Assembly: GCA_964450885.1 (NCBI GenBank)
Contig: CAYVFE010000002.1
Location: forward strand, 81,192 to 114,493
Source of the DNA: an uncultured Gammaproteobacteria bacterium
GTDB taxonomy: Bacteria; Patescibacteriota; Microgenomatia; Levybacterales; GWA1-39-11
Direction: 5' to 3'
Length of the DNA: 33,302 nt
Every line of letters begins with the position of its first letter. The first letter of the stretch is position 1. Of the stretch, positions 1,960-23,426 are shown one piece after another. The notes under the pieces are model-generated. The model was not told the origin of the DNA. It saw only the letters and a program-made list of their open reading frames with translations, and made no database searches. A program made the position numbers and the translations under genes.

Positions 1960-4599
1960 ATGAATGAAATAGGAAAATTAGAACAAGTAGAAATAGTAAA
2001 AGAGGCCAAAAAAGCATATCTCGACTATGCGATGAGCGTTATAGTCGCGCGTGCTCTTCCTGATATAAGAGACGGATTGAAACCGGTTCATCGAAGGATT
2101 CTTTATGCCATGTCTGATATGAACCTGACGCCTCAGGCGAAATTCTCCAAATCCGCAAAAATCGTCGGAGAAACGATGGGAAAATACCACCCCCATGGAG
2201 ATATGCCTATCTATGACGCGCTTGTGCGTCTCGCGCAGGATTTTTCGATGCGTTATACACTCGTAAACGGTCAGGGTAACTTCGGATCGGTAGACGGTGA
2301 TCCGCCCGCTGCCATGCGTTACACCGAGGCAAAGCTGCGACCTCTCGCGATGGAGATGCTTCAGGATCTTGATAAAGAAACTGTTGAATACATAGACAAT
2401 TTCGACGGAACGATGAAAGAGCCAGCATACTTGCCGGCAAAAATCCCGAATCTACTGCTTTCGGGATCAGAGGGAATTGCTGTAGGTATGGCTACAAAAA
2501 TCCCTCCACATAATTTGGGCGAGGTCGTAGACGCAGTTTTGTATACCATAGACAAGACCAAATTTGACGCTCAAATAGAACAGGATAAGACAACTCCCGA
2601 AAAAGCCGCCGAGGAAATGGCCGAGAAAGCCGAGGAACAAGAGACACCTTCACAAACGAAATTTACCGATGAGGAAGAGTTTTTGAGTAAAAAAGTAACA
2701 CTCAACTCGGAGGTAACTGTCGACGAGCTTCTTCAATTTATCCAAGGACCGGATTTCCCGACAGGCGGCGCGATTTATGATCAGACAGAGATCATCAACA
2801 CTTATCAGACAGGTAGAGGAAAAATCATCATAAGGGGTATCGCGAGTTTTGAGGATATAGGACAGGGCAAGAGTGCAATTATCATAACCGAACTGCCTTA
2901 TCAGGTGAATAAATCTGCTCTGGTCGCAAAAATTGCACACCTTGCAAAGGACAAGAAGATTGACGGGATAACAGACCTGCGCGACGAATCCGATAGGCAG
3001 GGAATGAGAGTTGTTATCGAGCTAAAGCGCGATCTGGCTCCTAAAAGGGTATTGAATAAACTTTATAAATATACCTCTCTTCAGACAAGCTTCCCTTCAA
3101 ATTTCGTTGCGCTCGTCGATGGAATTCCAAGGACTGTAAATCTAAAGACGATAATAGACGAGTATATAAAGCACAGATTCATTGTAGTTATCAGGCGCTC
3201 GGAATTCGAACTGCGGAATGCAAAAGCCAGACTTCACATACTGGATGGCTTGAAGATTGCAGTTGCCAATATAGATGAGGTTGTTGAAATCATCAAAAAG
3301 TCCAAAAATACCGACGAGGCTCGCGATAATTTGATGAAGCGCTTCCTACTAAGTGAAATCCAAACGAATGCGATACTTGATATGCAATTAAGACGACTTT
3401 CTGCGCTTGAGATTGAAAAACTCGAGCAGGAGTGGAAAGAAGTAAAAGCATTCATCGACTATCTCGAGGGTCTTTTGAAAGACCCTGCAAAGCTTATGGG
3501 TGTGGTCAAAGACGAACTGACCGAAATCAAGGAAAAATATGCTGACGCTCGAAAGACTAGGGTATTCAAGTCAAAGGTCGACGAGTTCTCCGATGAAGAC
3601 CTTATCCAAAACGAATCAACAGTCATAACCCTCACCAAAACAGGATATATAAAACGCCAATCTATGACGGGATTTAAGACTCAAGCGAGAGGCGGAAAAG
3701 GTGTCCGCGGCATGACGACCAAAGAAGAAGACACTATAGATCAGATACTTTTTGCCGAGACTCACGACTTCATATACTTTTTTACAAATAAGGGCAAGGT
3801 GTACCAAACGAGAGTATTTGAGATCCCGGAAAGCAGCAGGACCGCAAAGGGACAGGCCATAGTTAACCTGATAGATATAAGCGCAAATGACAGCATACAA
3901 TCGGTCCTGGTACGAAAGGGAAATGAATCAGAGAAAAAGAACCTTTTTATGGTAACGAAAAAGGGAGTGGTCAAAAAAACCAGCTTCGAACAATTCTCGA
4001 ATATAAGAAAGAATGGAATAATCGCAATTTCGCTGTCAGATGACGATAGACTCATCTGGGTAAAAATGACCAGCGGCAACGACGACATACTCCTTGTCAC
4101 CAAAAATGGAAAGGTGATCTGCTTTAGCGAAGAACAGGTGAGACCAACTGGAAGATCAAGTATGGGAGTTAGAGGAATCAAAATCTCCGGCGATGATGAA
4201 GTAATAGGCATGGATATAGTCAGCAATGCCGATAAAGAGGCAGAAATTATAATAATCGCAGAAAACGGGCTTGGTAAAAAGACCAAAGTTTCCGCTATCC
4301 GCAATCAGAATAGGGGAGGCCAGGGAGTAAAAATCGCTAACATTACAGCAAAGACCGGAAAGATTATTTATGCGGCCGTACTAGACAAAGAGCTCGACTC
4401 TGTAATCATAACTTCGGAGAAGGGCCAGGTCGTCAAGATTCCGGTAAAAACCATACCCACGCTTTCAAGAAACACTCAGGGAGTTATCCTAATGCGCTTT
4501 TCAAAAGGAGACGACAGGGTAGCTTCTGCTACTACGACAGGCAAAAGTGAAGATGAATCTGATCCAAAACTTGATACTCCAGAAGCAAAAGCTGCTTAA
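1960..4599 (+). CDS. gyrA: DNA gyrase subunit A
   Basis: [40 protein letters not shown] (catalytic Tyr), GyrA-box QARGGKG and C-terminal beta-pinwheel repeats. Confidence 0.99.
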
Positions 4600-4659
4600 T
4601 AGAAAATCTGAAGATTCTATTCCCTTACATTTCAAGCTCAAACAAACTATAATATAGCC

Positions 4660-5493
4660 ATGGAAATAAATGGCAAAAAACTTCAAGAGGATTTAGTCAG
4701 GAAGCTCAGCAGTGAAGTAAAAAGGCTTAAGGAAAAGGGTATTGATCCTTGCATTGCAATCGTCACTCTAGGCCCCGAAAAAAGCTGGGAAGCTTATGTC
4801 AAACAAAAGCTAAAGCTCGCTGAAAAACTCCACATCAAAGCAAGATTCATCAACTTAAGGCCTAAAACGACGGAGGAAGTTATCGAAATTGTCGAGAGTT
4901 TGAATAGAGATGAATCAGTGCACGGACTTATAGTTCAGAGACCTTTTCCGAATGAGATTGATACAGAAAGAGTTATTCAAAGTGTATCAAAAGATAAAGA
5001 TATCGATGGGTTTAGAAAGGATTCACAATTCGGTGTTCCAGCCTGGCTTGCTGTAAGATATATTCTCAGTCATATCGCCTCACTGCTAAATTTTTCCGAC
5101 CTACGATCCTTCCTGTCAGATAAGGCTATTCTCGTAATTGGAAAGGGTGGAACAGCAGGTCAGCCGACCATAGAGGGCCTCAAAGATCTAGGTTTTGAAC
5201 CGCAGGTAATAGATAGTAAAACTGTAGACAAGAAGCAGTTAATACGCGAAGCGGACATAATAATTTCTGCAGTCGGAAAGAAAAAAATAATTTCTGCAGA
5301 AAGTATAAAAGAGAAAAGTATCCTTATAGGAGTAGGGATCCATGGAGAAGATGGAAAGCTATTTGGTGACTTTGATGTAGAAGACATACAAAAGAAAGTG
5401 GCATTTTTTACTCCTACGCCGGGTGGGGTAGGACCGGTCAACCTGGCTTTTCTTTTTATGAATCTATTACAGGCTGTTAAAAATTCAGAATAG
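4660..5493 (+). CDS. folD: Bifunctional methylenetetrahydrofolate dehydrogenase/cyclohydrolase
   Basis: YVKQK (YxxxK), VHGLIVQRP, KDIDG, GDFD, TPTPGGVGP motifs. Confidence 0.92.
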   Translation: MEINGKKLQEDLVRKLSSEVKRLKEKGIDPCIAIVTLGPEKSWEAYVKQKLKLAEKLHIKARFINLRPKTTEEVIEIVESLNRDESVHGLIVQRPFPNEIDTERVIQSVSKDKDIDGFRKDSQFGVPAWLAVRYILSHIASLLNFSDLRSFLSDKAILVIGKGGTAGQPTIEGLKDLGFEPQVIDSKTVDKKQLIREADIIISAVGKKKIISAESIKEKSILIGVGIHGEDGKLFGDFDVEDIQKKVAFFTPTPGGVGPVNLAFLFMNLLQAVKNSE

Positions 5494-5496
5494 AGT

Positions 5497-6462
5497 ATGA
5501 AACGATTTGATCTAAAAGAGGAACTTAAAAGTCGCATAAAAAAAAGCGGGGGATTTACTAATTCGCACGCTCATATAGATCGTGCCTATACAGTAAATAA
5601 GGATAATTTCAAACTAATAAATGCTCCTCTGGAGCAAAAGTGGAACCTAAATGACGAATACAAAAAGAGTGTTACCGTCGTTAACCTATATGACAGGATG
5701 GCACGCGCAATAGAGATCATGCTCGACCAGAACGTCACCGCTCTGGGAACATTCATAGATGTCGATCCTCAGATAAAAGATAAATCGATAATGGCAGCCG
5801 AAAAAATCCGTAAAAAATATTCCAGACAGATCGAGATTAAATTCATAAATCAATGCCACAAAGGAGTTCTGGAAAGAGAGGCAAGTAAATGGTTTGCCTA
5901 TGGGGCGGATTTCGTCGATATCATAGGTGGACTTCCCAGAGCCGATATAGGCCGCGAAAAAGAGCACGTGCAGACACTTTTGCATACGGGGAAAAAGCTC
6001 AACAAGATGGTACACGTCCATGTAGACCAGCTAAACTCAGCTAAAGAAAAGGAGACCGAGCTTTTGGCAAAGCTGACGATAAAAAACAATATGCAGGGTA
6101 GAGTAGTCGCAATACACGGAATATCGATCGCAGCACATAAGAAAACTTATAGAAAAAAACTGTACTCGCTTATGAGGGAGGCAAAGCTTATGGCCATAGC
6201 TTGTCCGACGGCATGGATAGATAGCAGAAGAAGCGAGGAAATATCCCCTATCCATAATGCTCTAACTCCTGTCGATGAGATGATTGATGAAAAACTTACC
6301 GTAGCACTTGGGACAGATAATATAGCTGATATCTACAAACCTTTTTCTGATGGAGATATGTGGATAGAGCTTAGACTACTACTTGAGGGGTGCAGGATTT
6401 CGGATCTCGATAAATTGGTGAAGATAGCCAGTAAAAATGGGCGCAAGGTCCTGGGGCTATAG
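5497..6462 (+). CDS. Cytosine deaminase-like metal-dependent amidohydrolase
   Basis: HAHID metal motif, HVHVD, IHG and LGTDN in the order seen in CodA-type amidohydrolases; starts 3 nt after the folD stop. Substrate unknown. Confidence 0.85.
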   Translation: MKRFDLKEELKSRIKKSGGFTNSHAHIDRAYTVNKDNFKLINAPLEQKWNLNDEYKKSVTVVNLYDRMARAIEIMLDQNVTALGTFIDVDPQIKDKSIMAAEKIRKKYSRQIEIKFINQCHKGVLEREASKWFAYGADFVDIIGGLPRADIGREKEHVQTLLHTGKKLNKMVHVHVDQLNSAKEKETELLAKLTIKNNMQGRVVAIHGISIAAHKKTYRKKLYSLMREAKLMAIACPTAWIDSRRSEEISPIHNALTPVDEMIDEKLTVALGTDNIADIYKPFSDGDMWIELRLLLEGCRISDLDKLVKIASKNGRKVLGL

Positions 6463-6472
6463 TGGGCTATAG

Positions 6473-7288
6473 TCAAACGACTTCTTCTTCGAGGATTGCT
6501 GTTAGGCAGTGTGCGCCGCCGCCAGCCTTCATGAACTCCCTCAGATCGACTTCTATCGATCTATATCCAAGCGACTCCACTTTATCTTTAAAAGTAGGGA
6601 TGCCGCTTTGCATCACCACATGGTGATCGGTTGTTATGGAATTGGCAGCAAAATTCTCGACCTCAAAATCTTCAAAAGGGATAAGAAGCGGGATGTTAGC
6701 TTTCAATGCTTCCAGGGATTTTTTTGTAAAGGCTCTTGGATAGTAAAAAGCAATTCTGTCATTTAATGGGAAAAGTGCAGTATCTAGGTGAAAAAACCTC
6801 GGATCCTTTAGCGAGATAGGCACGACTTCTATCCCCAAAAATTTTTCGATAAATTTGCATGCGCGAATATTTGTCCTGAATCCTACACCTATAAAAATTT
6901 TATTATTGATAAACAAACTCTCACCGCTACCTTCAAATGTGATATCTTCCGGAAGAAAGAAAAATGTAAAATTTTTGTCTTCGAACCATTTTTTGTAAAA
7001 ATCGCGCTCTTTTTGTCTCTCCGGATATTTGAAATTACTGACAACGATCGAGTTATTGTAAAAAATGCCTTGATCTGTCGCAAAAACCATATCAGGAACA
7101 CCTTTAACTTGATCGATTATCTCGACCTCTATCGAGAGCCTTTTATAAACTTTTACAAGCTGGTTCCATTGAGAAAGTGCTTTTTGGCCATCAGCGGATC
7201 CTTTGACCATCCAAGGATTTATACTATAGTCGACGGAGAAGTATTTGGGCCGGCACATCAATACTTTTCTAACGATCTTTGTCTTCAT
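6473..7288 (-). CDS. Guanidino-group-modifying (amidinotransferase/DDAH/ArgZ-like) hydrolase
   Basis: VLMCRPKYFSVDYSINPWM, PDMVF, FEGSGE, FHLDT and GGGAHCLT give the Glu-His-Cys triad of the pentein fold; 4-bp ATGA overlap with the argG stop. Confidence 0.9.
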   Translation of the reverse strand: MKTKIVRKVLMCRPKYFSVDYSINPWMVKGSADGQKALSQWNQLVKVYKRLSIEVEIIDQVKGVPDMVFATDQGIFYNNSIVVSNFKYPERQKERDFYKKWFEDKNFTFFFLPEDITFEGSGESLFINNKIFIGVGFRTNIRACKFIEKFLGIEVVPISLKDPRFFHLDTALFPLNDRIAFYYPRAFTKKSLEALKANIPLLIPFEDFEVENFAANSITTDHHVVMQSGIPTFKDKVESLGYRSIEVDLREFMKAGGGAHCLTAILEEEVV

Positions 7289-8913
7289 TTACGATAGCCA
7301 AAATCGTCATAAAGCTTGTCGACGAATTGCTTTGCGACTCCCATAGTGGTTATGAGATGGGTGTTCGTCTTGATAGCAAAATCGCGGATGATATTTCTGT
7401 CTGTCTTTTCTTTTTCGTCTTCATCTTTCTTATTTTCGATACTGATTATAAAATCGAAGCGCTTTGAATCTAGCAAGTCCAGTAGGTTTGGTTTTTTGTG
7501 AGGTTGTGAGATCTTCTGAACCAGAATAGAAGGTATGCCATTTGATATCAGGAATTTGTGAGTCTTATACGTAGAGTAGAGCTTAAAACCGAGAGAATTC
7601 AACTTTTTAGCATATGACAGGAATTTTACTTTATTTGCTCTTTTTCCGATAGAAAGCAAAGCGGTTCTCTCGCTTCGCTGTGCAAGCCTCATCTGAAGAG
7701 TGTAGAGCTCTATAAATCCTGCCGAAGCATTCTGGTTAAAGGCATCTGACGACATGAACGTTGCCAGCTTTTCCTCAAAAATAGTATTTGGTGTCTGGAC
7801 TGCAACAGCCTCTGCCATACCTTTAAATAATCTTACCTTAACTGTACCCGTAACTTTCTGATTGATCTTATCGATAAAGGCATTTAGATCATCCATCAAA
7901 GGTTCGAGCCAAAAAGCACCATAGCAAAGATATGCCCATTTGGTGTCTACCTCTGATTTGAATTCGTTTTCCTGACGGGTACTAACATATTTCTCCAGGT
8001 TCTTATGGGCAGTTATTATTATCTCAGCAGCTGGTGCTTCATATATTCCGCGGACCTTTAATCCCACAACCCTGTCTTCTATGTGATGCGCTATTCCTAT
8101 TCCATGCTTTGCGCCTATTCTATTTAAAGTATCTATGATTTTTGCCAGCTTCATCGACTTCCCATTTACGCTTACAGGAATTCCTTTAACAAACTCAACC
8201 TCAACTATCTCAGCCTTATTCGGAGCTTTTTCGGGGAGAGTACAAACAAGCAGTATATTCTCGAGGGGTGGGACGAGAGCGGGATCCTCAACTTCGCCGC
8301 CTTCGGCCGTTACACCCCACATATTGTCATCATAAGAATAAAGTTTTTTTGCACTTTGTCTTACTTCGATTCCATGCTTTTTTGCATACTTAAGTTCTTC
8401 ATCGCGTCCCATCGCCCATTCGCGCACAGGTGCGATTATCTTTATGTCAGGATTTAGCGCAAGAGCAGTACCTTCGATCCTAACCTGATCATTTCCCTTA
8501 CCTGTACATCCATGAGCGATCGTGTCTGCGCCTTCTTCCATAGCGACACGAACTGCGATTTTTGCCAGAAGCGGACGGCCCAAAGGAGTGGACAAAAAAT
8601 ACCTTCCCTGATAAGAACCATTTGCCTTAATTCCTTTTGCGATATATTCCTCCGCGAATTCATCTTTCGCATCGACGACGACTGCTTTTATGGCTCCGAG
8701 CTTTAAAGCCTTTTTCTTTATTTGTTCGAGGTCATCGGTCTGCTGACCTATGTCTATCGTGAGTGCAATTATCTCTGCATCATATTCTTCTTTTATCCAC
8801 TTAAGCATTACTGATGTGTCCAATCCACCGGAGTAGAGAAGGACGACTTTCTTGATCTCGCCTTTCTTCCCTTCGTAGGAGGCTACTTTTACATATTTTC
8901 CGTTTTTTGCCAT
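7285..8913 (-). CDS. argG: Argininosuccinate synthase with C-terminal MGS-like (CarB-type) domain
   Basis: KVVLLYSGGLDTS, HGCTGKGNDQVR, YSYDDNMWG, GRG-equivalent GLKVRGIYEAP, FNQNASAGFI; extra ~127 aa from residue 416 resembles the MGS-like domain. Confidence 0.95.
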   Translation of the reverse strand: MAKNGKYVKVASYEGKKGEIKKVVLLYSGGLDTSVMLKWIKEEYDAEIIALTIDIGQQTDDLEQIKKKALKLGAIKAVVVDAKDEFAEEYIAKGIKANGSYQGRYFLSTPLGRPLLAKIAVRVAMEEGADTIAHGCTGKGNDQVRIEGTALALNPDIKIIAPVREWAMGRDEELKYAKKHGIEVRQSAKKLYSYDDNMWGVTAEGGEVEDPALVPPLENILLVCTLPEKAPNKAEIVEVEFVKGIPVSVNGKSMKLAKIIDTLNRIGAKHGIGIAHHIEDRVVGLKVRGIYEAPAAEIIITAHKNLEKYVSTRQENEFKSEVDTKWAYLCYGAFWLEPLMDDLNAFIDKINQKVTGTVKVRLFKGMAEAVAVQTPNTIFEEKLATFMSSDAFNQNASAGFIELYTLQMRLAQRSERTALLSIGKRANKVKFLSYAKKLNSLGFKLYSTYKTHKFLISNGIPSILVQKISQPHKKPNLLDLLDSKRFDFIISIENKKDEDEKEKTDRNIIRDFAIKTNTHLITTMGVAKQFVDKLYDDFGYRK

Positions 8914-9063
8914 ATGTAATTAAAAACTTATATTATGAAGACAAAAAATATACTAATATTCTTGCCTTTAACCATACAATAGTTAATTTCGTATATTTTG
9001 TCAATATACAAAATCATACTTTTGACAAAACTTTTAAAAACATATAAAGTAGTTTTTGTAGGA

Positions 9064-9852
9064 ATGTTCAAGAAAGATAAAAGAATCCGCATTCTTTCTT
9101 TTGCCCCGAGAAGAACTAAAAGGTCAAATTTTTTCAAATTAAGCCTTTTTGCTTTTGCATATCTCTCGCTTATCGGAAGTCTGTGCGCTCTATATATGCT
9201 TACGATCCCTGAGGGGAATGCCCAACTGGAAAAAAGGACGCTGGGTGAAAAGACGGAAAATGTAAAAAGGGCAAATATCGGGTACCTGGAGATTTCTCCT
9301 TCGCCTACACTGGTAGCTTCGGTAACACCTACTCAAGCTCCAGAACCAACACCTGTTCCACCCACAGCTACGCCAACTACTCAGGCTCAAATCGACAATA
9401 GCACGCAATATACTGCCGAGAAAATCGGAGAAAACACTTTCAGGGTGACAGGGGTAACGCTTGATAACAGCATGGCAAGCACCTCAGATATATTAGATGC
9501 CCTTAATTCGTATAGGCAGGGAAGAGGAGTTGGGACTCTTGCATGGGACAGTAACCTTGCGACCTTCGCACAGGATAGAGCCAACTTTTTTAGCTCAAAT
9601 AGTACACTGGACAACCACACGGGGTTCAAAAGCTTTATGGATAACAATGGGTTTGAGATATCCGGATTCAATGGTCTAGGAGAAAATTCAGCGCATCTTG
9701 CGGGCCCCATGAATGGCGACAGAATCATCAAGGAGATTTTTGGCGCCGATGCACCGCATGACAACAACCAGCTTGATTCTTCCTGGACTCATGCAGGCGT
9801 CGGGGTAAATGGTAACTACATCAACATCAACTTCGGAAGAAACAAAAGATAG
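9064..9852 (+). CDS. Membrane-anchored CAP (SCP/Tpx-1) domain protein
   Basis: Basic N-terminus plus one TM helix, Pro/Thr linker (PTQAPEPTPVPPTATPT), then LNSYRQGRG..LAWDSNL..AQDRA, GENSA, H..N.LD..W...GVG. Start moved from 8998 to the more plausible ATG at 9064. Confidence 0.85.
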   Translation: MFKKDKRIRILSFAPRRTKRSNFFKLSLFAFAYLSLIGSLCALYMLTIPEGNAQLEKRTLGEKTENVKRANIGYLEISPSPTLVASVTPTQAPEPTPVPPTATPTTQAQIDNSTQYTAEKIGENTFRVTGVTLDNSMASTSDILDALNSYRQGRGVGTLAWDSNLATFAQDRANFFSSNSTLDNHTGFKSFMDNNGFEISGFNGLGENSAHLAGPMNGDRIIKEIFGADAPHDNNQLDSSWTHAGVGVNGNYININFGRNKR

Positions 9853-9865
9853 GCAAACCTTAGGC

Positions 9866-10798
9866 TTATCTCTTATTTCCCTGATGGAATTTCTTATGGA
9901 CTTGTTTGAGCTGAGGATTTGTTATATGCGTATATATCTGTGTCGTACTTATATTCTTGTGCCCCAACATCTCCTGAACAGAGCGTAAATCGGCGCCATT
10001 TGATAGTAGATCCGTCGCAAACGAGTGACGCAGTGTGTGTGGCGTAGCTTTTACAGGAATCTTGGATTTTTTAACATACTTTTCGACGATCCGCTCTATC
10101 GATCGGGGAGTAAGTCGCATTTTTTCTCCATTGTTAAGACTATCTTTACCTTTTGCATAGCGAATATAAACAGGTGCGTAGTCGTCTTCGCGACGTTCGA
10201 AGTATTTAGTGAGCCAGAAAGCCGCACTATCAGAAAGAAAAACTATGCGTGCCCGGCCGCCCTTCCCTATCACTCCAAATTCACGGCTTTTAAAATTAAT
10301 CATATCGCGATTTAACCTGGAAAGCTCACTTACGCGCAGCCCTGTCGAGAACAAAAGTTCCAGTATCGCACGGTCTCTGAGTCCCTTTTCTGTTGATATG
10401 TCTATGGAATTTACGAGCTCTCTGAGGTGATCCTTTTCCAAAAACTTCAAAGACTTGCTTTCTCCTTTAGGAAGATCAATTTTCTCAGGTGCAAGTGTAT
10501 CGATATCGTTTCGCACGAGATATCTCAAAAATGAACGAAGGGCGATAATATGATAGCTCTGAGTGACTCGTTTTAGTGTCATATTATTCTGGTCGGTAAG
10601 ATCAGAAAGATACTTCCTGTATTTGCGTACAATGTCTAGATTGAGGCTATTTAGCTTCAAATTTGGATGAAATTCGGCGGCCCAGTCTGAAAAACGGCTT
10701 AGATAGAACCTGTAATTGCGTATTGTAAGCTTGCTGGAATTTTTTTCGATCTCGAGATACTCGAGATATTGTTCTATATATTTATTTAGTTCTTCCAT
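9866..10798 (-). CDS. XerC/XerD-like tyrosine recombinase
   Basis: N-terminal SAM-like domain (TIRNYRFYL); catalytic R-K-H-R-H-Y set: RDRAILELLFSTGLRVSEL, GKGGRAR, TPHTLRHSFAT, MLGHKNISTTQIYTH. Confidence 0.96.
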   Translation of the reverse strand: MEELNKYIEQYLEYLEIEKNSSKLTIRNYRFYLSRFSDWAAEFHPNLKLNSLNLDIVRKYRKYLSDLTDQNNMTLKRVTQSYHIIALRSFLRYLVRNDIDTLAPEKIDLPKGESKSLKFLEKDHLRELVNSIDISTEKGLRDRAILELLFSTGLRVSELSRLNRDMINFKSREFGVIGKGGRARIVFLSDSAAFWLTKYFERREDDYAPVYIRYAKGKDSLNNGEKMRLTPRSIERIVEKYVKKSKIPVKATPHTLRHSFATDLLSNGADLRSVQEMLGHKNISTTQIYTHITNPQLKQVHKKFHQGNKR

Positions 10799-10808
10799 AG
10801 AGCAGAGT

Positions 10809-10831
10809 AGTATTATTGTGCGACATAATTA
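10809..10831. repeat. 23-bp exact direct repeat (copy 1; spacer plus right arm of the palindromic site)
   Basis: AGTATTATTGTGCGACATAATTA is identical at 10809-10831 and 11503-11525. Confidence 0.95.
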
Positions 10832-10860
10832 GTATGCACATCTTTGTACCAAAATGTCAA
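10831..10860 (-). promoter_or_regulatory. Putative sigma70 promoter of the xer gene
   Basis: Minus strand TTGACA (10860-10855), 18 nt, CATACT (10836-10831), about 32 nt upstream of the ATG. Confidence 0.6.
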
Positions 10861-10949
10861 CGGCGTGCAGAAATAAGCCTAAGTGGTTTTTGCGATTAAC
10901 AGCAGTTAAGTTGTAAAAGGCACAAAACATATATAGGAAAACCTTCTAG

Positions 10950-10963
10950 ATTGTGCGACATAA
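10950..10963. repeat. Isolated half-site (14 bp)
   Basis: ATTGTGCGACATAA matches the arm in the other two copies. Confidence 0.85.
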
Positions 10964-10988
10964 ATATTCACGGTGATATAATTACTTT

Positions 10989-11201
10989 ATGAGTCCTGAA
11001 TTACATCCTGTCGTTATGATCAAATCCGCTTGGAAATACCTTTCAAATCGCGATCAAAAACTTATGAGGTTCTATAATTCCAATTTCGTCAACAGTCCCA
11101 TAAGTGATTCGCAGATAGATACCGATTTGCTTATTAAAGACGACGCCGTAACACAAGATATTGAAAGAAATACCCAAAATCCTGATAACACATCCCAGTA
11201 A
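10989..11201 (+). CDS. Possible small hypothetical protein (70 aa)
   Basis: ORF only; no RBS or motif; lies between the repeat copies. Confidence 0.3.
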   Translation: MSPELHPVVMIKSAWKYLSNRDQKLMRFYNSNFVNSPISDSQIDTDLLIKDDAVTQDIERNTQNPDNTSQ

Positions 11202-11490
11202 TATTTGAGCTCATATACAACGCACGAGGATGCGATTTAAGGCCCCTGAAATAATTTAAAGCACTACATACACCTATTAAATAAAGTCTTATATTCCCCA
11301 AAACTTAAACTACGTTCATTTGAATTCATATTTATCCTATAGTAGGGTAGTGTCCTTATAATTACATCCTTTGAACAAAGAGAATATTGCAAGCGATCAA
11401 CTAGCGGAAAGGTAAAGCTAAATCAATAAACATTAAAAAGGAAATTTTGCGTATTTGAGTAAATATAGCCACACTCTCGGCATGTCAGGT

Positions 11491-11522
11491 TTATGTCGTA
11501 AAAGTATTATTGTGCGACATAA
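11491..11522. other. Candidate tyrosine-recombinase crossover (dif-like) site, 13-6-13
   Basis: TTATGTCGTAAAA-GTATTA-TTGTGCGACATAA; arms are 11/13 inverted-identical with a 6-bp spacer, 0.7 kb from the xer gene. Confidence 0.65.
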
Positions 11523-12196
11523 TTATATACCACCCCCCCCAGCCTAGGGCAGGACGAATATATGTCATCTTCCACCTCTTGGTTATATTGCAAGAAAAAT
11601 TAAAAACTTTAGATGGCTTATTTGATCTCAATTAGCACTTCTCTCGTAAAAGAGTCAGGACTCTTAAATGCGGTATTTAGTGCTATTTAGCTTATGAATA
11701 CGGTAAAAACGTCAATTTTAGCCTCAAAACGAGGCTTATTTATCAACGTCCTTACGCTCTTTTGGAGCGGTTTAGAGCCTAAAATCAACAAAAACAATAG
11801 TTTTAGCTTCAAATGTTCGAGATTTGTTCGCTTTTTTTTCATTTTCAGGTCTATACTTGGAACTACAAGCAAGGCTATATCACCCTTAATCCAAGGTAGT
11901 GCTTAACTTTAATTATCTTAAGAAACCATTTGCATTCTACCAGATAAACCATATCAGCCTCTACCGTTAGAGGGCGAGATATCCGTGAAAAGACAGTACT
12001 TAACCTCGTGAAACTATAAGTCCCTTTTTACCTAGACGATCTGACTTAAATGACTTAAAATAATTATTATAGGATATAATTATAGGATGTTAAAATGCAT
12101 GTATCAAACTATATCATTTGAATCTAATTATTGCACTCTTCTACTCCGTCTTCCTGCCATCAAAAAATTATAATGAGAATAAAATTAGATTAAAAG

Positions 12197-12997
12197 CTAA
12201 ACTCCCCATTGGGAAAAAACTACAAGGAATAAAACAGAAATGAACCCGACCCATATATATTCCCAAAGGATACCTTTAAAGAGCCTGCGCTCAAGCCAGG
12301 CATGAACCAGCCCCGAGTAGGTATAAAATATTCCTGTTAAAAAAAGCGCATATACAGCTGCATTTACAGGCCAAAGGATCATTACGATAGCAAGCTGCAT
12401 GAGCGAGAAAGAGATTACAAATGACGAAATAAAGATTTCTTTAGCCTGTGATTTATTAAGACTGTATGACCAAAGGCTCTCAAAGTTCATGAATAAAGAC
12501 ACCAGGAAAACAATAACCGGAGGCATAAAGTAAAGCTGCCTTAATGAAAAAGCAAAGTTAAATAAGAAAAACAGAACCAAAAGCGTCAAGATGAATGACA
12601 CGATCCTCGCGCTCCTAAGCAGATTTATCGTCCTGATTCCTGAGACCGCAAAAATATTTTGCGTGAGAAACAATGAATAAAGCCCAAAGGCATATAAAGA
12701 CGTAATTATTATCTGAGAAATCAATCTATCAGGCACCAAAGAGTAGAAAAAAGGAAATGAAAGTGAAAAGAAAAACGGCAGGACAAGAATCGGATAAAAG
12801 AAAGTCCCCTTCACGTCTTTCCTAAGTATAAAAAACAACAGAAGATCGGTAAGAACTGCAAGAATCAAAGTCCCGACAAAAAGTCTTAGATCGGTGAGGA
12901 ATTGAAGGAAGAAAAAAAGCAATGAGAGAACCATCACCGACAGGACCAGTCTTTGTCTTTTATTTAGGCTCAGTAATTGCTGAAGTTTCTTTATCAC
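12197..12997 (-). CDS. Polytopic membrane protein of unknown function (CPR-type)
   Basis: About 8 hydrophobic segments; GTG start 2 nt after the yebC stop. Confidence 0.85.
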   Translation of the reverse strand: MIKKLQQLLSLNKRQRLVLSVMVLSLLFFFLQFLTDLRLFVGTLILAVLTDLLLFFILRKDVKGTFFYPILVLPFFFSLSFPFFYSLVPDRLISQIIITSLYAFGLYSLFLTQNIFAVSGIRTINLLRSARIVSFILTLLVLFFLFNFAFSLRQLYFMPPVIVFLVSLFMNFESLWSYSLNKSQAKEIFISSFVISFSLMQLAIVMILWPVNAAVYALFLTGIFYTYSGLVHAWLERRLFKGILWEYIWVGFISVLFLVVFSQWGV

Positions 12998-12999
12998 CT

Positions 13000-13725
13000 T
13001 TAAACTGAAAATTCAAAATTGGTATAAACCTTCTGTACATCGTCAAGATCCTCAAATTTTTCTATCAATCCCTCTATCCTACCCTGATTTTCGGGACTTG
13101 AAATAAAAGTTTTTGGTTTGTAAATGATTTCTGCTTCCTCAACTACCATTCCGCTTTGTTCCAATGCACTTTTTACCTGCATAAGACTTGTGGGCTGAGT
13201 ATAAAAATAGGCCAAATCAGCCTCATTTTCTACGTCAACTGCTCCACTTTCAAGCGCAATGTCCAAAAGCTCTTCCGGTGTTTTTCCTGCTGATTTTGCT
13301 ATGACTTCACCCACCCTGTCAAACTGATAACTGACTGCACCCTGCGCCCCCATCGATCCTCCATTTTTCTCGAAAATATTCTTAACTTCGGCTACGGTTC
13401 TTTGTTTCTTATCCGTTACCGCCTCAACAATTAATGCAACCCCTCCAGGTCCGAACCCCTCATATGTGACTTCCTCAAGGATACTGTCTCCGCTACCCCC
13501 AGCACCCCTTAGAATTGCTCTATCAATACTGTCTTTAGGCATATTGGCAGCCTTTGCCTTATCTACAGCAAGTCTCAGACGCGGATTACTGTCTGGATCT
13601 GACGTACCACCCTGCTTCACGGCGATCGATATCGTACCTGCGATCTTGGTGAATAACTGACCACGTTTCGCATCAGTTGCTCCTTTTGCTCTCTTGATTG
13701 TTGCCCATTTACTATGTCCCGACAT
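13000..13725 (-). CDS. yebC: YebC/PmpR family protein
   Basis: Canonical start MSGHSKWATIK (ATG at 13725, not 13863), NPRLRLAVDKAKAANMPKD, YEGFGPGGVA, DLDDVQKVYTN. Confidence 0.95.
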   Translation of the reverse strand: MSGHSKWATIKRAKGATDAKRGQLFTKIAGTISIAVKQGGTSDPDSNPRLRLAVDKAKAANMPKDSIDRAILRGAGGSGDSILEEVTYEGFGPGGVALIVEAVTDKKQRTVAEVKNIFEKNGGSMGAQGAVSYQFDRVGEVIAKSAGKTPEELLDIALESGAVDVENEADLAYFYTQPTSLMQVKSALEQSGMVVEEAEIIYKPKTFISSPENQGRIEGLIEKFEDLDDVQKVYTNFEFSV

Positions 13726-13813
13726 ACTTTGATTATAAATCATAATTATAAGTTCAAAATACACCTGTTGCAAGTTTTTGCGATCACAATGCGATACCTT
13801 ATTTTTTGCACGA

Positions 13814-13842
13814 TTGACAAACCTTGTCTTATTTCCTAAAAT
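13814..13842 (+). promoter_or_regulatory. Putative sigma70 promoter of the TPR gene
   Basis: TTGACA, 17 nt, TAAAAT, 20 nt upstream of the ATG at 13863. Confidence 0.7.
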
Positions 13843-13862
13843 GATTGAATTAAATTCGCCCA

Positions 13863-14474
13863 ATGCTACCTCTAAAAGATCAGGCTATAAAATACGCTCT
13901 AGAAAATAATTGGAAAGAAGCAATCCAAATCAATCAACTAATCCTCGAAAATAACCCAAAAGATATAGACGCTCTAAATCGACTCGGATTCTCTTATCTC
14001 AAATGTCAAAAGTTTAAAGAGGCAAAAAAGATTTTCGAGAAGGTAATCTCATTTGATAAAACAAACCCTATTGCTCATAAGAATATCAAAAAAATCGAAG
14101 CGCTATCTGGAAATAAAATAAATGAGAGCAATAATATCCACAATATAGACGGACTCTTTATTCAGGAAACGGGGAAAACTAAATCTATTGAGCTGCGGAA
14201 TCTAGCTGATAAAAAAACCCTCCTACTCCTCGAAACAGCAGATGAAGTAAATTTGGTCATAAAAAGATCTAAGATTTTCGTCCAAAAACCTGATAAGACC
14301 TTCATCGGAATGCTGCCTGATGATATAGGAATGAGACTAATCAGCCTTATAAATGGTGGGAATGAATATAATGCATTTATAATGAACTCTGATGACAAGA
14401 AGGTAACGATATTTGTTAAAGAAGTCAAAAAAAGCAAGAAATTTGCAAATCAACCCTCATTCTCCCTAAGCTAA
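13863..14474 (+). CDS. Tetratricopeptide repeat protein
   Basis: N-terminal TPR pattern (WKEAIQINQLILENNPKDIDALNRLGFSY...AKKIFEKVISFDKTNPIA), followed by a beta-rich C-terminal domain. Confidence 0.85.
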   Translation: MLPLKDQAIKYALENNWKEAIQINQLILENNPKDIDALNRLGFSYLKCQKFKEAKKIFEKVISFDKTNPIAHKNIKKIEALSGNKINESNNIHNIDGLFIQETGKTKSIELRNLADKKTLLLLETADEVNLVIKRSKIFVQKPDKTFIGMLPDDIGMRLISLINGGNEYNAFIMNSDDKKVTIFVKEVKKSKKFANQPSFSLS

Positions 14475-14647
14475 TCTTTAAGTTCGAAAAGCACAACTTC
14501 TTCACCATGCTTTAGTTCACCATTTATTTTTTTAGAATGCATCTTCTCTGCTCTTTCTTCCTGCTTTCTCAAGGCCCTTTTTAAAGAATAAAGCGCCCAC
14601 AAGAAAGAAATAAGCAGCAGAAAAGGTATCAAGAAAAACATCAGCAT
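14471..14647 (-). CDS. Small single-pass membrane protein (58 aa; absent from the ORF track)
   Basis: My translation: MLMFFLIPFLLLISFLWALYSLKRALRKQEERAEKMHSKKINGELKHGEEVVLFELKD; starts 2 nt after the LytR_C gene stop and exactly fills the gap. Confidence 0.65.
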   Translation of the reverse strand: MLMFFLIPFLLLISFLWALYSLKRALRKQEERAEKMHSKKINGELKHGEEVVLFELKD

Positions 14648-14649
14648 AA

Positions 14650-15489
14650 TTAATCCAGACTATTTTCGAAATCGAGTTCGGACTCTTCACCTATTATAAG
14701 CGTGATATCGGCGATTTGATATTGCTGTGATTTCACGAGATCAAATTTAAAACTTTGCGCTATAAAACTGGCATCCTTTTCATATTCATCACCTGTATAG
14801 TAGATTACAGATTCCTTCATCTCCGGACGGGTCAAAACAGAAACAACATTGTACCCGGTCCTTGAGTACATCTCCCCTACTTTAGTCGCCAGACCATTTA
14901 TATTTGTCCCATTTATAACCTGCAAGCTCGTCTTCCTACTTATTAGGCTCGAGTCTCTAAATAACGCCCCATCCTCATCAGGCAAAAGAGCGTTTAAATC
15001 TTCTATAGAACCAAATGATTTCGTTATAGATTTCTCGGATTCTACTTTTCTACCCAAAACATAAAGCTTCATCCAATCGAAAAACGAGATATTTCTTATC
15101 CTAAGACTCCTATCGACTATCATATCCTGAATGTTTCCCAAGGAAAAAAAGTTTTTCGTAGGTGCCTTTGGTTCTTTGTCGTTAGGATAGGAAATTATCG
15201 CATGAATAGGAATTCCGAAATTTACACTCTGGAACATTATATTTTCTCTTGTTATATCGCCAGTTTTTTTGGTTACCAAAACAGACGACAGGCTTTCGTT
15301 ATTGTCATCCAGACCTATAACTCCGACATATTTTTCTGATAATACCAAAATATTATATGTGTTGTGTGTGAACGACCTGTCATAATAAGAGCCTACTGCC
15401 CTAAAAAAGATAGCAATAAGGATGATTACGATAACCCCTATCAAAAAAATCTTTACGTAGGAAAATGCACTTGTCTTTTCTTTAGTCAT
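14650..15489 (-). CDS. LytR C-terminal domain-containing membrane-anchored protein
   Basis: N-terminal TM helix; C-terminal SLQVINGTNINGLATKVGEMYSRTGYNV...SVIYY...ADITLIIGE pattern of LytR_C. Confidence 0.8.
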   Translation of the reverse strand: MTKEKTSAFSYVKIFLIGVIVIILIAIFFRAVGSYYDRSFTHNTYNILVLSEKYVGVIGLDDNNESLSSVLVTKKTGDITRENIMFQSVNFGIPIHAIISYPNDKEPKAPTKNFFSLGNIQDMIVDRSLRIRNISFFDWMKLYVLGRKVESEKSITKSFGSIEDLNALLPDEDGALFRDSSLISRKTSLQVINGTNINGLATKVGEMYSRTGYNVVSVLTRPEMKESVIYYTGDEYEKDASFIAQSFKFDLVKSQQYQIADITLIIGEESELDFENSLD

Positions 15490-15543
15490 ATAAAGGTCTG
15501 AAATTAAGTTTAGGCAAAAGGAATCATGAAATCAACAAAAAAA

Positions 15544-16299
15544 CTAGTCTTCCGCTTTTTCTAGAATCTTTAGGAACCCGGAAAGATCATCGGTCAATTT
15601 TGAAATTATATGCATTGTCTCGTGGCTCTCCGGATGCAAAAAGGTAATTTCTTTTGCGTGTAGAAAATGCCTTCCCAGTCTCTTTCTATCTCTACTCGAA
15701 ACTTTCCGTCCTGCATAAAGAGCATCCGAATAAATCGGAAAGCCTGCATATTGTAGATGAACTCTTATCTGATGAGTCCTCCCCGTCTTTGGAAATGCTT
15801 TTACCAAAGACAGCTTTGACTTCGGATCATCTGGATCTATATACAGTTTTTCCAACTTAAAATCTGTTACCGCGCTTCTCCCATCGGGAACTATTCCAAA
15901 GCGCATCCTATTCCAGGGAAGTCTTCCTACCGGAGCAGTAATATTTGCTCTCTCTGGAAACTGCCCATGCACAAGCGCAACGTATACTTTCTCAACTTCT
16001 CGTTCCTTGAATTGTTTTTGTAAACTGACAAAGACCTTTTCGTTCTTTGCGACCAGAAGAACTCCTGAGGTCTCCTTATCAAGCCTATGTACCATCCCGT
16101 CACGGAGAAAAAAATCTGAAGCATCGTCGGACTTGTCTTTTTTAATAGATAGGTTTTCCTTCACCCAATCCTGCAGTGTATACTCATGTCGGGAAGTGTC
16201 AGCGTTATTTACTATCATCCCATATGGCTTTATTACTGCTGCCATATCATCATCTTCATACGCGATTTGCACCTCTGAGCTTTTGTTAATATCAATCAT
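15544..16299 (-). CDS. RluA-family pseudouridine synthase
   Basis: KPYGMIV, VHRLDKETSGVLL (catalytic Asp), KTGRTHQIRVH, LHA motifs. Confidence 0.95.
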   Translation of the reverse strand: MIDINKSSEVQIAYEDDDMAAVIKPYGMIVNNADTSRHEYTLQDWVKENLSIKKDKSDDASDFFLRDGMVHRLDKETSGVLLVAKNEKVFVSLQKQFKEREVEKVYVALVHGQFPERANITAPVGRLPWNRMRFGIVPDGRSAVTDFKLEKLYIDPDDPKSKLSLVKAFPKTGRTHQIRVHLQYAGFPIYSDALYAGRKVSSRDRKRLGRHFLHAKEITFLHPESHETMHIISKLTDDLSGFLKILEKAED

Positions 16300-16955
16300 T
16301 TTTCGTGGAAAAAGTTAATTCGGATAAGCACAAGACAATAGGCAGAAATCGCGATATCGACTAAGGCAACTATCTGTATAGGAGAATACAACGCAATACC
16401 CTTCTCGCGCACAAAACTATATCCCAAATAAGAAATAGCTGAGAGAATAAGGATCGTGAAAGACACTATCCCGTCTTTTATTTTATATCCACTATGCATT
16501 TTTATAAGTATTGGAAACAGCAATAGGGACAAGACCAAATATCCTACAGCAATCCGAAAATCAAAACTACCTGATACGAGATGGTAGATTGCTACAAATA
16601 TCGTCAACGGATAAAAAGATATCATATATATATCCAGTATCCTAAATAAATTTTTTCTCTTTCGGTAAAGAAGGACTACCCCCAGCGCAACTGTGATAAA
16701 AAACCCTAAGAGTAAAAATCCATAGTACAAAATCACATGCAAAAAGCTTAGAGGGTCTAGGAAAAATTCGTACAGCCTCTCATCGATTAAATAAAATATC
16801 CTGGCCACAAGTAGTGCAAAGAAAGTGATTATAAAAGCCTTATCGAAAATCAGTCTTATAGAGATATTCTGTCTGATAAGCACAAAATCATGCCTGGATG
16901 CTACGAATAACACAAACGAACAGATGAATAAAAATAGTAGCAAAAGTAAAAACAT
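16296..16955 (-). CDS. Membrane protein, possibly Lgt (prolipoprotein diacylglyceryl transferase)-like
   Basis: Multiple TM helices; ARIFY and YGFL/LD positions loosely match Lgt GARxxY, GGL and D; short and divergent. Confidence 0.55.
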   Translation of the reverse strand: MFLLLLLFLFICSFVLFVASRHDFVLIRQNISIRLIFDKAFIITFFALLVARIFYLIDERLYEFFLDPLSFLHVILYYGFLLLGFFITVALGVVLLYRKRKNLFRILDIYMISFYPLTIFVAIYHLVSGSFDFRIAVGYLVLSLLLFPILIKMHSGYKIKDGIVSFTILILSAISYLGYSFVREKGIALYSPIQIVALVDIAISAYCLVLIRINFFHEK

Positions 16956-16956
16956 T

Positions 16957-18234
16957 TTAATTTTTCTTTAGGTTCAATCTTTTGATTCCGATAGAAAGGA
17001 TAAGTATGGCAATCGACGTAATTATCACCTCTGCCCCGAAAATATCAGCAAAAAGTCCTGTCACTATTATTGGCACAAGCACTAGAACTCCAGCTAGAGT
17101 AAAAATCAAGCCATATATCTTTGATCTATAATGATCCTCGATATTTGACTGAATTATAGTCTGGGATGGCACGAATATCAAAGCGTTTGCGATCCCTGCA
17201 AAAAAGGCAACTATCACAGTACCGACCACCGGAGGAATAATAGATTGGAATGGAACTAGCGCAAGGACAAAGAACACGAAGGACGACAGGAATATTCCAA
17301 GGTTCATCAAACTATTTCCGCTTCTATTTTTAAAATATGCGCCTATAAAAAGTGACATAAAAATCATTCCAAAGGCAGCGGGCGCAAAAACTATAAGCGA
17401 CATATCTTCCGCATCAATCCCCAGTCTGCTAACAGCAAAATCTGGAATTATTGTAGCCATTATGAGCGTTATTACTTGCGACAAGGCCAGGAACAAAACA
17501 GCAGACCCTATCTCGGTGCTTTTCTTTGCAAGACGGATCGAATAACTAAGTTCCTTTATTACTAAATCCAATATCTTTCTATAGTTTTTAAGCCCATTTT
17601 TATCAGTAAACCCTATCTTTACAGAAGGAGGTATATTTGGGATCAGATAGGCAAAAAACGTCGCTGACAAAAACAATGCTCCTATGAATAGGAATACATA
17701 AGAGTGTCCAAAAAACTTTATAAATGGGCCACCGAGGACGTACCCTATCAGTACTGACCCGAAAAGAAATACTCCGAATAAAGAATTTGCTGCAAGTAGA
17801 TAGTGTTTACTGACGACATGCGGGATTATTGGTGTTTCTGCCGGAACATAGAATTGCGTAGTTGAAGATATGATAAATGAAGCCAGGTATAGGTAAAATA
17901 ATGAGTCCCCGAAAAAGAAAAATCCGGCTACAAAAAGCGCTCTAATTATATTTCCGGCTATAAGGATTATGCGTTTATTTTTCGCATCACCTATGATGCC
18001 TCCCATAAAACTGAAGAGTGCTTGGGGAACAGTGATCGCGAGTATCAGAAACGAAACTGCAAGATTTGATGAAGTAAGCTGGAATGCCAAAAATATCAAG
18101 ACGATATTCATCATATTGAAGGCAACCTGTGAAAAAATTACAGAAAGAGAGAATATGAAAAATGCGGGATTTTTCAATACGTCTATCAACCTGGGACCAG
18201 GTGTATTGATTATTTGAGACGGATCTGCGGACAT
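16957..18234 (-). CDS. MFS transporter
   Basis: About 12 TM helices; GIIGDAKNKRII (motif A-like), second-repeat Q..I....RSKIYG. Confidence 0.9.
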   Translation of the reverse strand: MSADPSQIINTPGPRLIDVLKNPAFFIFSLSVIFSQVAFNMMNIVLIFLAFQLTSSNLAVSFLILAITVPQALFSFMGGIIGDAKNKRIILIAGNIIRALFVAGFFFFGDSLFYLYLASFIISSTTQFYVPAETPIIPHVVSKHYLLAANSLFGVFLFGSVLIGYVLGGPFIKFFGHSYVFLFIGALFLSATFFAYLIPNIPPSVKIGFTDKNGLKNYRKILDLVIKELSYSIRLAKKSTEIGSAVLFLALSQVITLIMATIIPDFAVSRLGIDAEDMSLIVFAPAAFGMIFMSLFIGAYFKNRSGNSLMNLGIFLSSFVFFVLALVPFQSIIPPVVGTVIVAFFAGIANALIFVPSQTIIQSNIEDHYRSKIYGLIFTLAGVLVLVPIIVTGLFADIFGAEVIITSIAILILSIGIKRLNLKKN

Positions 18235-18788: not shown

Positions 18789-18789
18789 A

Positions 18790-19752: not shown

Positions 19753-19819
19753 AATATTGTTTAAAACAAGTAAAAAGTATATAATAACTAGGCTCAAAAG
19801 TAAAGTCTTTTGGCAACTT

Positions 19820-19903
19820 GGGCGAGTGCTGGAATGGTATACAGGTTAGTCTCAAAAACTAATGGGAATTTTTCTCATGAGGGTTCGACTCCCTCCTCGC
19901 CCA
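19820..19903 (+). tRNA. tRNA-Leu(CAA)
   Basis: GGGCGAG/CTCGCCC-A acceptor, anticodon arm TTAGT-CT-CAA-AA-ACTAA, long variable arm, GAGGG-TTCGACT-CCCTC T arm; CCA not encoded. Confidence 0.96.
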
Positions 19904-20057: not shown

Positions 20058-20072
20058 GCAAGCCAATAAAAT

Positions 20073-21002: not shown

Positions 21003-21026
21003 AGAAAAGAATTACTATATTGCGTA

Positions 21027-21502: not shown

Positions 21503-21519
21503 GCGGACCTAGATTGCGA

Positions 21520-22860: not shown

Positions 22861-22865
22861 ATCGT

Positions 22866-23348: not shown

Positions 23349-23387
23349 CGTTAATTTAGTATTCTATCCTACCACAATAAAAATTTC

Positions 23388-23416: not shown

Positions 23417-23426
23417 AGGGTACTTC

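Follow-up and report, generated by a model that had tools for sequence, protein, structure and literature searches.

A probable dif site and the adjacent Xer-like recombinase in a Levybacteria-like genome of the candidate phyla radiation

In several lineages, one Xer-type tyrosine recombinase is paired with one dif site: XerS with difSL in streptococci and lactococci, XerH with difH in Helicobacter and Campylobacter, XerA with dif in archaea, and XerL with dif in Legionellales. Here we describe a locus that, by its predicted function and logic, is a single-site Xer/dif module of this kind. It lies in a stretch of 33,302 nucleotides that was analyzed as a whole (the window). We consider it probable, and hold this with good confidence, that a 30- to 32-bp palindrome at 11491 to 11522 is the chromosomal dif of this Levybacteria-like genome (Microgenomates, candidate phyla radiation [CPR]) and that the adjacent 310-amino-acid (aa) Xer-like protein is its recombinase.

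Like the locus in the window, the XerS/difSL module has one recombinase and a near-symmetric site upstream of the recombinase's own gene, and the inner arm ends of difSL, TTTCCGAAAA / TTTTCTTGAAA, are A/T tracts (PMC5357621). XerS/difSL is FtsK guided; the parallel in the window is confined to polar words directed toward the site. However, XerS has 356 aa and belongs to another branch; its NCBIfam model gave the window protein 128.6 bits against a cut-off of 267, far below the scores for XerC, XerD, and XerA. In addition, difSL is 31 bp long with an 11-bp center and abuts xerS, whereas the site here has a 6-bp center, lies 693 bp away from its gene, and is accompanied by extra half-sites near the promoter. 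Archaeal XerA/dif resembles the window in its single recombinase of about 280 to 310 aa and its palindromic site with a 6-bp center, and XerA is the closest by sequence among solved structures (Pyrococcus XerA, 4a8e, E=2e-39; also near is E. coli XerD, 1a0p). It differs in being archaeal, in its arm sequence, and in acting, as reported, independently of FtsK (PMC5357621), whereas the window has a converging word resembling the FtsK-orienting polar sequence (KOPS). With the XerA equivalog model (NF040815), the protein scored 209.4 bits, just short of the cut-off (220).

The XerC/XerD-dif systems of E. coli and B. subtilis share with the window the proposed function, the 6-bp center, the terminus location, and the converging G-rich words. 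They rely on two paralogues and clearly different arms, whereas the arms here are near-identical and the protein scored under both equivalog cut-offs (XerC, 251.8 bits versus 335.15; XerD, 246.4 versus 329.6). The protein thus scores near-equally to XerC, XerD, and XerA and under each curated cut-off. In E. coli dif, ATAA/TTAT abut the center, whereas in the window site these bases are distal. The initial annotation had used this point to set the site apart from E. coli dif, but the arrangement itself has a precedent: the left arm of difH, AGTTATGAAAA, has an outer TTATG and an inner A-tract, as does the window site (PMC5357621). XerH/difH likewise pairs one recombinase with a site close to the recombinase gene. 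XerH proteins, of 354 to 362 aa, are only distantly related; the 310-aa window protein falls outside their class, and the XerH structure 5jjv matches it over residues 121 to 300 only, that is, in the catalytic domain (E=2.7e-11).

XerL/dif of the Legionellales shares with the window a lineage-specific single recombinase and a palindromic site of about 30 bp, in noncoding DNA with varied neighbors and at the terminus; it has another recombinase lineage and another site sequence, and it has been tested genetically (PMC9765430), whereas the window system is known from sequence. A somewhat different parallel is TnpI with its internal resolution site (IRS) on Tn4430, where a core inverted repeat is joined by direct copies of the binding motif nearby (PMC2847244). 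That IRS is a 116-bp site for resolving transposon cointegrates, whereas the half-sites in the window are 0.13 to 0.7 kb off, there is no transposase, and the context is housekeeping; the site thus falls outside the TnpI/IRS type, which has its direct accessory motifs within about 100 bp of the core and belongs to a Tn3-family transposon. Taken together, an Xer of the XerC/D/A sequence type is paired here with a site built like difSL and difH, with the outer TTATG of difH and inner A/T tracts.

The protein is probably a member of the "Cand" subgroup of Xer-related simple tyrosine recombinases (Smyshlyaev et al. 2021, PMC8138268), which gathers Xer-like proteins of candidate phyla; its lineage is therefore probably catalogued already. 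The passages of that paper that were consulted describe no target site for these proteins. In the searchable open literature, we found no publication linking CPR with a dif site or containing these arm sequences, and the arm 12-mers matched only two eukaryotic papers, both unrelated. As far as that literature shows, this is a previously undescribed Xer/dif variant.

The recombinase gene, xer, occupies 9866 to 10798 on the - strand, as seen from the open reading frame (ORF) list, Pfam, and NCBIfam. It is intact, in agreement with the initial annotation, and its product has both tyrosine-recombinase domains, the SAM-like core-binding domain (PF02899) and the catalytic domain (PF00589). The catalytic residues R155, K179, H254, R257, H280, and Y289 were invariant in an alignment of 11 homologues. 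It is the only Xer gene in the window, so the description of a single recombinase holds for these 33 kb. Levybacteria-type assemblies are rich in homologues, at 73 to 93% identity.

The site itself reads TTATGTCGTAAAA-GTATTA-TTGTGCGACATAA, just as had been noted earlier, and begins 693 bp upstream of the xer ATG. The 32 bp (11491 to 11522, without strand) are delimited by the sequence, by identity among orthologous loci, by the family logo, and by the flip of a polar word discussed below. Written on the + strand, they comprise arm 2, the AAAA type (TTATGTCGTAAAA, 11491 to 11503), the 6-bp central region GTATTA (11504 to 11509), and arm 1 (TTGTGCGACATAA, 11510 to 11522), which is of the CACAA type when read on the - strand. 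The arms are complementary at 11 of 13 positions; the two that do not pair are arm positions 9 and 11. The near-identity of the arms is consistent with one recombinase protein. Inverted repeats of the 13-6-13 form with at least 11/13 matches occur twice in the window, compared to 0.6 +/- 0.8 in Markov-1 simulations, so the inverted repeat alone is unremarkable. The other one (19909 to 19940) lies 5 nt past a tRNA-Leu gene (19820 to 19904) and is probably a terminator. What makes the site nonrandom is that TTGTGCGACATAA is triplicated and that the site is conserved across genomes. There are three exact + strand copies of this 13-mer (10816 to 10828, 10951 to 10963, and 11510 to 11522), all within 707 bp, where about 0.01 13-mers occurring three times would be expected by chance; no further copy with one mismatch or fewer was found in the 33-kb window. 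The first two copies, direct half-sites, had been overlooked in the initial annotation.

Conservation of the site, at 31 or 32 of 32 positions before orthologues with 78 to 93% protein identity, is much greater than that of its surroundings. In seven loci with Xer proteins of 78 to 90% identity, 31 or 32 of the 32 positions are identical, with the full site 0.65 to 1.33 kb upstream of xer, while the adjoining noncoding DNA diverges. The order yebC-(ruvC)-DUF5656-site-xer-CAP...gyrA is conserved in orthologous loci, and this synteny is kept across genera. Farther out, an xer-anchored core, GTCGYACAA-TAATAC-TTTTRCGAC, was found upstream of xer in species-representative genomes of the Levybacteria, Curtissbacteria, Woesebacteria, and Pacebacteria types, with Xer proteins 52 to 74% identical, in line with the earlier expectation that the motif would be conserved beside orthologues. 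When metagenome contigs were searched for a degenerate palindrome, at least 120 instances of the site were recovered, with the consensus TATGTCGCACAA-N6-TTTT[G/A]CGACATA. Across these at least 120 loci, the outermost (13th) arm base and the 6-bp center vary, and the arms are asymmetric: one inner end is nearly always CACAA and the other AAAA, so that the arms differ systematically at a single base (C/A). Symmetric TTGTG arms were present in only 3 of 120 sites among the matches listed. The proposed 13-6-13 geometry is therefore correct as to its 6-bp center but not as to its arms; the conserved unit is 12-6-12 (11492 to 11521 in the window, without strand, by family comparison), with the general core GTCGYACAA-N6-TTTTRCGAC. 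For counting in complete chromosomes, the degenerate pattern TATGTCGYAMAA-N6-TTKTRCGACATA would serve; in OY970292.1, the site maps to about 377,817 to 377,846 of 1,142,061 bp.

Several assemblies with a Microgenomates-type xer, synteny, and site are recorded under titles like "uncultured Gammaproteobacteria," "Chloroflexia," "Dehalococcoidales," or "Bathyarchaeota" (among the numbered loci compared here, L013, L018, L020, L021, L023 to L025, L029, and others). The record taxonomy of these bins looks unreliable.

The site lies upstream of xer in one orientation, with the CACAA arm distal, in all 45 dereplicated xer-linked loci, at a distance of 46 to 3,474 bp (median, 915). Among the metagenomic matches listed, however, an xer gene is within reach in only about a third of loci, although many of the other contigs are short or end near the site. 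The claim that the site is adjacent to xer thus needs qualification: with about two thirds of the listed occurrences lacking xer in reach, linkage is frequent but not obligate. The site is intergenic, and its neighbors vary: one flank has DUF5656 or yebC, and the other a peptidase-like gene or one of many others. It occurs once per locus, and among the matches listed, none of the 11 contigs longer than 100 kb (104 to 545 kb) appears twice, so the motif is not scattered in the manner of a transcription factor operator. The content of the interval between site and xer is also variable. In L001, a 90%-identity relative, positions 5252 to 5809 encode a 185-aa Trans_reg_C protein (OmpR-type winged helix; also in L002 and L003), a gene that sits between two half-sites upstream of xer, whereas the window has unrelated DNA at this place, with a nonconserved ORF of 70 aa (10989 to 11201). 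This ORF had no family match, its only homologue among the loci was in the identical contig L214, and it was dropped as a meaningful gene.

An unbiased search for words oriented relative to the site identified GGGGAG and gave the strongest of the results. All 11 copies in the window point to the site. To the left, they are at 4313, 8233, and 10105 on the + strand (4313 to 10110 overall), two of them inside - strand genes; to the right, they are at 12202, 14872, 15779, 20366, 21582, 30118, 30147, and 30526 on the - strand (12202 to 30531 overall), three of them inside + strand genes. Five copies are therefore on the antisense strand of their genes, and the flip, between 10105 and 12202, does not coincide with the switch in gene orientation at 6.47 kb. 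Pooled over 127 loci, AGGGGAG occurs 206 times toward and 15 times away from the site (left, 103:5; right, 103:10), and GGGGAG counts change from +107/-17 in the kilobase left of the site to +23/-62 in the kilobase right of it, so that the flip is in the bins next to the site. The bias is kept in genes of either strand (29:7 in - strand genes of the left flank and 7:38 in + strand genes of the right). When the loci were reduced to 106 sequence clusters with one member each, there were 333 copies toward and 71 away; counted by cluster, 73 point toward the site and 8 away (p=3e-14). The E. coli KOPS, GGGNAGGG, is likewise polar at these loci (116 toward, 22 away). Genes converge as well, with 68% of coding base pairs on the left and 66% on the right pointing to the site, and at the site the pooled GC skew falls from +0.09 to roughly 0, being higher on the left in 53 of 60 loci. 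Thus, a word switch, converging genes, and a skew drop, all marks of a terminus location, are found locally at the site. G-rich polar words converging on dif are an established signature of FtsK-guided dif zones in E. coli, B. subtilis, and Lactococcus (PMC5357621). This suggests that (A)GGGGAG(T) is a KOPS-like word and that an FtsK-type translocase would bring the sites together and license the reaction.

We imagine that two Xer protomers would bind the near-identical arms, TATGTCGCACAA and TATGTCGYAAAA, that two sites on a chromosome dimer would synapse, and that strand exchange across the 6-bp center would turn the dimer into monomers. Polarity would come from the single C/A difference between the arms together with the nonpalindromic center. 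With (A)GGGGAG(T) pointing at the site from both sides, a translocase of the FtsK type could bring the sites together, while half-sites with the arm 1 sequence, at or upstream of the xer promoter, would most likely be bound by monomers of Xer and in this way influence xer transcription in turn. The general attributes of Xer/dif systems are in place: the catalytic RKHRHY set, a 12-6-12 site in noncoding DNA, and a conserved site with varied flanks. From these data, we infer Xer binding, the cleavage positions, dimer resolution, FtsK dependence, and autoregulation.

Some observations weigh against this interpretation. The xer orthologues of Roizmanbacteria, Peregrinibacteria, and Parcubacteria have no such site within 4 kb. 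The window has no FtsK gene in its 33 kb, and the point where its genes change orientation, about 6.47 kb, is 5 kb away from the site. After removal of the gene-strand effect, the residual skew is about +0.058 on the left and about +0.03 on the right; the right flank is lower, which is the expected trend, yet still slightly positive within 6 kb, and since it does not become negative there, skew alone is weak evidence. Finally, a few other genes close to the site have arm 1 copies in their promoters, which gives the motif some use connected with transcription.

With regard to the orthologues that lack the site, no GTCG-armed palindrome was found within 4 kb of xer in Roizmanbacteria, Peregrinibacteria, Parcubacteria, and others. 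Seven xer loci of the Roizmanbacteria type (L036, L037, L039 to L042, and L057), in which no full palindrome was found within 4 kb, have a different conserved motif, (A)TGTCGTTTAATAT, directly before the xer start codon.

The half-sites draw attention to the xer promoter. Half-site A (AGTATTA-TTGTGCGACATAA-TTA; 10809 to 10831, - strand), recognized as a sequence repeat, consists of center and arm 1 without arm 2; it has 23 nt in common with 11501 to 11523 and ends 18 nt from the xer ATG. Half-site B (ATTGTGCGACATAA; 10950 to 10963, - strand), also a sequence repeat, is the third exact copy of arm 1, in the same orientation; its equivalents in L001 and L004 are 520 to 560 bp from the full site. 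A consensus scan predicted a single good promoter for xer, the sigma-70-type TTGACA-18 nt-CATACT (10831 to 10860, - strand; 10/12 matches). Half-site A starts 2 nt downstream of the predicted -10 and therefore covers the expected start of xer transcription. Copies of arm 1 between site and xer reach 1.16/kb, compared to about 0.05/kb, an enrichment of about 20-fold, and are in one orientation. In Woesebacteria-type loci, the half-site abuts the -35 element, GTCGCACAATRTT(A)TTGACA; in Levybacteria-type relatives, it overlaps the -10 (TTGACA-N18-CAYAAT) or, in the window, the start site. A half-site is found at xer promoters even where no full site lies within 4 kb (L029, L030, L050, and L064). 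Most likely, Xer binds its own promoter, and autoregulation through the half-sites is the simplest reading of their placement; autoregulation through the site has been proposed for XerS/difSL (PMC1914069).

A few arm 1 copies lie elsewhere. In L094 and L181, ATGTCGCACAAT stands 4 to 7 nt before the start codon of a gene resembling those for 6-phosphogluconolactonase and glucosamine-6-P isomerase, about 610 bp to the right of the site, where it resembles a -10 element for a leaderless transcript; the L108 copy is about 1,240 bp from the site, some 50 nt upstream of a NUDIX-like gene.

On the xer side of the site, Levybacteria-type loci also share a noncoding block at a fixed distance from it (11221 to 11479, - strand, by locus alignment). 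It was found in the window and in L001 to L008, L013, L015, L060, L092, L104, L125, L170, L172, L177, and L180. Locus comparison places within it, all on the - strand, CGAGAGTGTGGC (11468 to 11479), CTACCCTACTATAGG (11336 to 11350), GGTGTATGTAGTGCT (11260 to 11274), GGCCTTAAATCGCA (11231 to 11244, about 260 nt from the site), and a small hairpin (11221 to 11234); CCTACTATAGG, about 150 nt from the site, is invariant. No conserved ORF was found in the block. As a known RNA, the block (about 270 bp) was rejected, having no Rfam match at gathering thresholds or at E<=5, and its consensus fold is weak, RNAalifold energies for both strands being only -1.7 to -3.6. The block may be transcribed from the -10-like CACAAT of arm 1, or it may be protein-binding accessory DNA. 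A similar 13-mer beside the site of phage contig L096 was considered as kin to GGCCTTAAATCGCA, but the match (12 nt, E=2.4) was taken as chance.

The site pattern is also present in six viral contigs. L208/L209, L096 (=L210), L103, and L197 are DNA of tailed phages, with genes for portal and major head proteins and for both terminase subunits (small and large); the copies in them are perfect or near-perfect and always in a noncoding stretch beside terS/terL; perfect sites are found on at least four distinct tailed-phage contigs. The pattern scan located them at 3468 to 3497 in L208, 8813 to 8842 in L103, 449 to 478 in L096/L210, and 1773 to 1802 in L197; in L208 and L103, phage genes lie on both flanks. 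L212, a viral contig of 8.4 kb, has an inovirus-like gene set, although with a weak Zot-type ATPase match only. Its site (6829 to 6858) is symmetric, TATGTCGCAAAA-TAGTTA-TTTTGCGACATA, and stands beside an xer-like gene of a group of roughly 33% identity, an arrangement that would be expected for a filamentous prophage at dif. An element that exploits Xer would be expected to carry a dif mimic, to have no integrase of its own, and to be integrated at dif between two sites; no integrated copy with two junctions was seen. Filamentous phages, islands, and LME-1, a mobile element with a copy of the XerL dif site, exploit Xer by carrying a dif mimic (PMC5357621, PMC9765430).

Low-GC fermentation contigs also have perfectly symmetric versions of the site, next to Xer genes with about 33% identity. 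In three human-gut contigs (L132, L144, and L149), an XerS-like recombinase of about 350 aa is directly beside TATGTCGCAAAA-TATTAA-TTTTACGACATA; it scores 204.9 bits to XerS (cut-off, 267), and its only named relative among the matches listed is a protein of Acetitomaculum ruminis (43% identity). Outside CPR, a similar class of site thus seems to work with another branch of Xer. A distinct Xer/dif pair of Patescibacteria, as first envisioned, is strongly supported by the sequence comparisons, but the class of site is not confined to it, being shared with the XerS-like genes, with Xer genes of roughly 33% identity, and with phages.

One can envision, tentatively, and with distinctly less confidence than the assignment of the site as dif, that mobile DNA docks at the dif region by means of Xer. 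The tailed phages and the inovirus-like element, with their perfect dif copies, would rely on the Xer of the host either for integration or for resolving their own multimers, and the half-sites and the variable DNA between site and xer would be the domesticated remains of insertions, now serving Xer self-regulation. In that case, the xer-proximal site would have lost arm 2 after insertion of an element that brought a complete site. If tailed phages do exploit Xer, this would extend a class in which filamentous phages and islands are the main known members. Of these proposals, FtsK dependence would be on firmer ground than autoregulation, and autoregulation on firmer ground than exploitation by phages.

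Other explanations seem considerably less probable. It is unlikely, although it survives better than the rest, that selectivity for resolution at the same crossover site comes from a self-contained complex of half-sites, perhaps with factors bound to the conserved block, acting as a topological filter in place of FtsK. Such a complex would make sense of a core inverted repeat with two or three direct copies of arm 1 on the recombinase-gene side, in one orientation and conserved in Levybacteria-type loci, and of a noncoding block at fixed spacing from the site, much like the DR1-DR2 accessory motifs of TnpI at the Tn4430 IRS (PMC2847244). But the half-sites are 0.13 to 0.7 kb or more from the core, whereas the whole IRS spans 116 bp, and given these distances, an accessory role like that of DR1-DR2 is less likely than autoregulation. 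Moreover, the position of the half-sites follows the xer promoter and not the core; in lineages with a nonadjacent xer, the site mostly lacks them or they stand at other promoters; and the polar convergence of GGGGAG fits guidance by a translocase.

Slightly less probable still is a purely transcriptional role, in which palindrome and half-sites would be operators that control xer and its neighbors, bound by Xer as a repressor or by some other dimeric regulator, with no recombination at all. Half-sites do overlap promoter elements of xer in many lineages, as well as the promoters of the 6-phosphogluconolactonase-like and NUDIX-like genes near the site, and arm 1 holds the -10-like CACAAT. Operators, however, would not account for a full site that is often without a nearby xer and has varying neighbors, that occurs once per long contig among the matches listed, and that has a conserved, orientation-specific asymmetry. 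No other copy is present among the roughly 35 genes of the window, and phage genomes carry the site beside packaging genes. The site is also exactly at a replichore-type switch of polarity, a place for which an operator would have no reason.

That the recombinase is instead the integrase of an integrated mobile element, with half-site A and the full site as attachment (att) junctions flanking a 0.7-kb remnant, seems very improbable. The 23 nt shared by half-site A and the full site in direct orientation would suit such junctions, as would the variation of the intervening DNA between relatives, exemplified by the Trans_reg_C gene of L001, and the presence of the site in phages. Yet core-gene synteny from yebC through DUF5656, site, xer, and CAP to gyrA is kept across genera, the Xer protein is highly conserved, and no mobile-element gene was found among the about 35 genes of the 33-kb window. 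The polarity of the junctions is also wrong: after integration of an element of the form "arm 1-center-degenerate arm," the complete site should be the one nearer to xer and the hybrid the one farther off, whereas the observed order is the other way round, and the half-sites were therefore rejected as junction scars of such an element. Only a model in which the element brings a complete site and the xer-proximal copy later loses arm 2 fits the layout. Equally improbable is binding by a terminus-specific protein, such as a fork trap or terminus-organizing factor, in place of Xer: the location at a convergence of polarity and gene orientation would agree with it, but fork traps come as several copies in opposite orientations and here there is one copy, placed upstream of xer in fixed orientation in 45 of 45 linked loci, with half-sites at xer promoters and 12-bp arms around a 6-bp center, the core geometry of tyrosine-recombinase sites.

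A chromosomal dif with its own Xer, the reading that we prefer, would have some practical consequences. To our knowledge, nearly all that is known of CPR (Patescibacteria) comes from metagenome-assembled genomes, and there has been essentially no study of their chromosome biology. The 30-bp dif motif, together with (A)GGGGAG(T), would mark the replication terminus in Microgenomates genomes and so would aid assembly curation, mapping of replichores, and coverage-based growth estimates. The motif would also give a handle on phages and other elements that exploit Xer in CPR hosts, and the small size of the system, a 310-aa protein and a 30-bp site, would allow a cheap plasmid-resolution test in a heterologous host.

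The other genes of the window are of the housekeeping kind: near the module are gyrA, folD, an amidohydrolase gene, an argG-MGS fusion, and genes for a CAP-domain protein and DUF5656, with yebC, efp, dnaB, cysS, hisS, and two tRNA genes in addition. The argininosuccinate synthase gene (7285 to 8913, - strand) encodes a 542-aa fusion protein, which has an extra MGS-like domain at its C terminus (residues 431 to 522).

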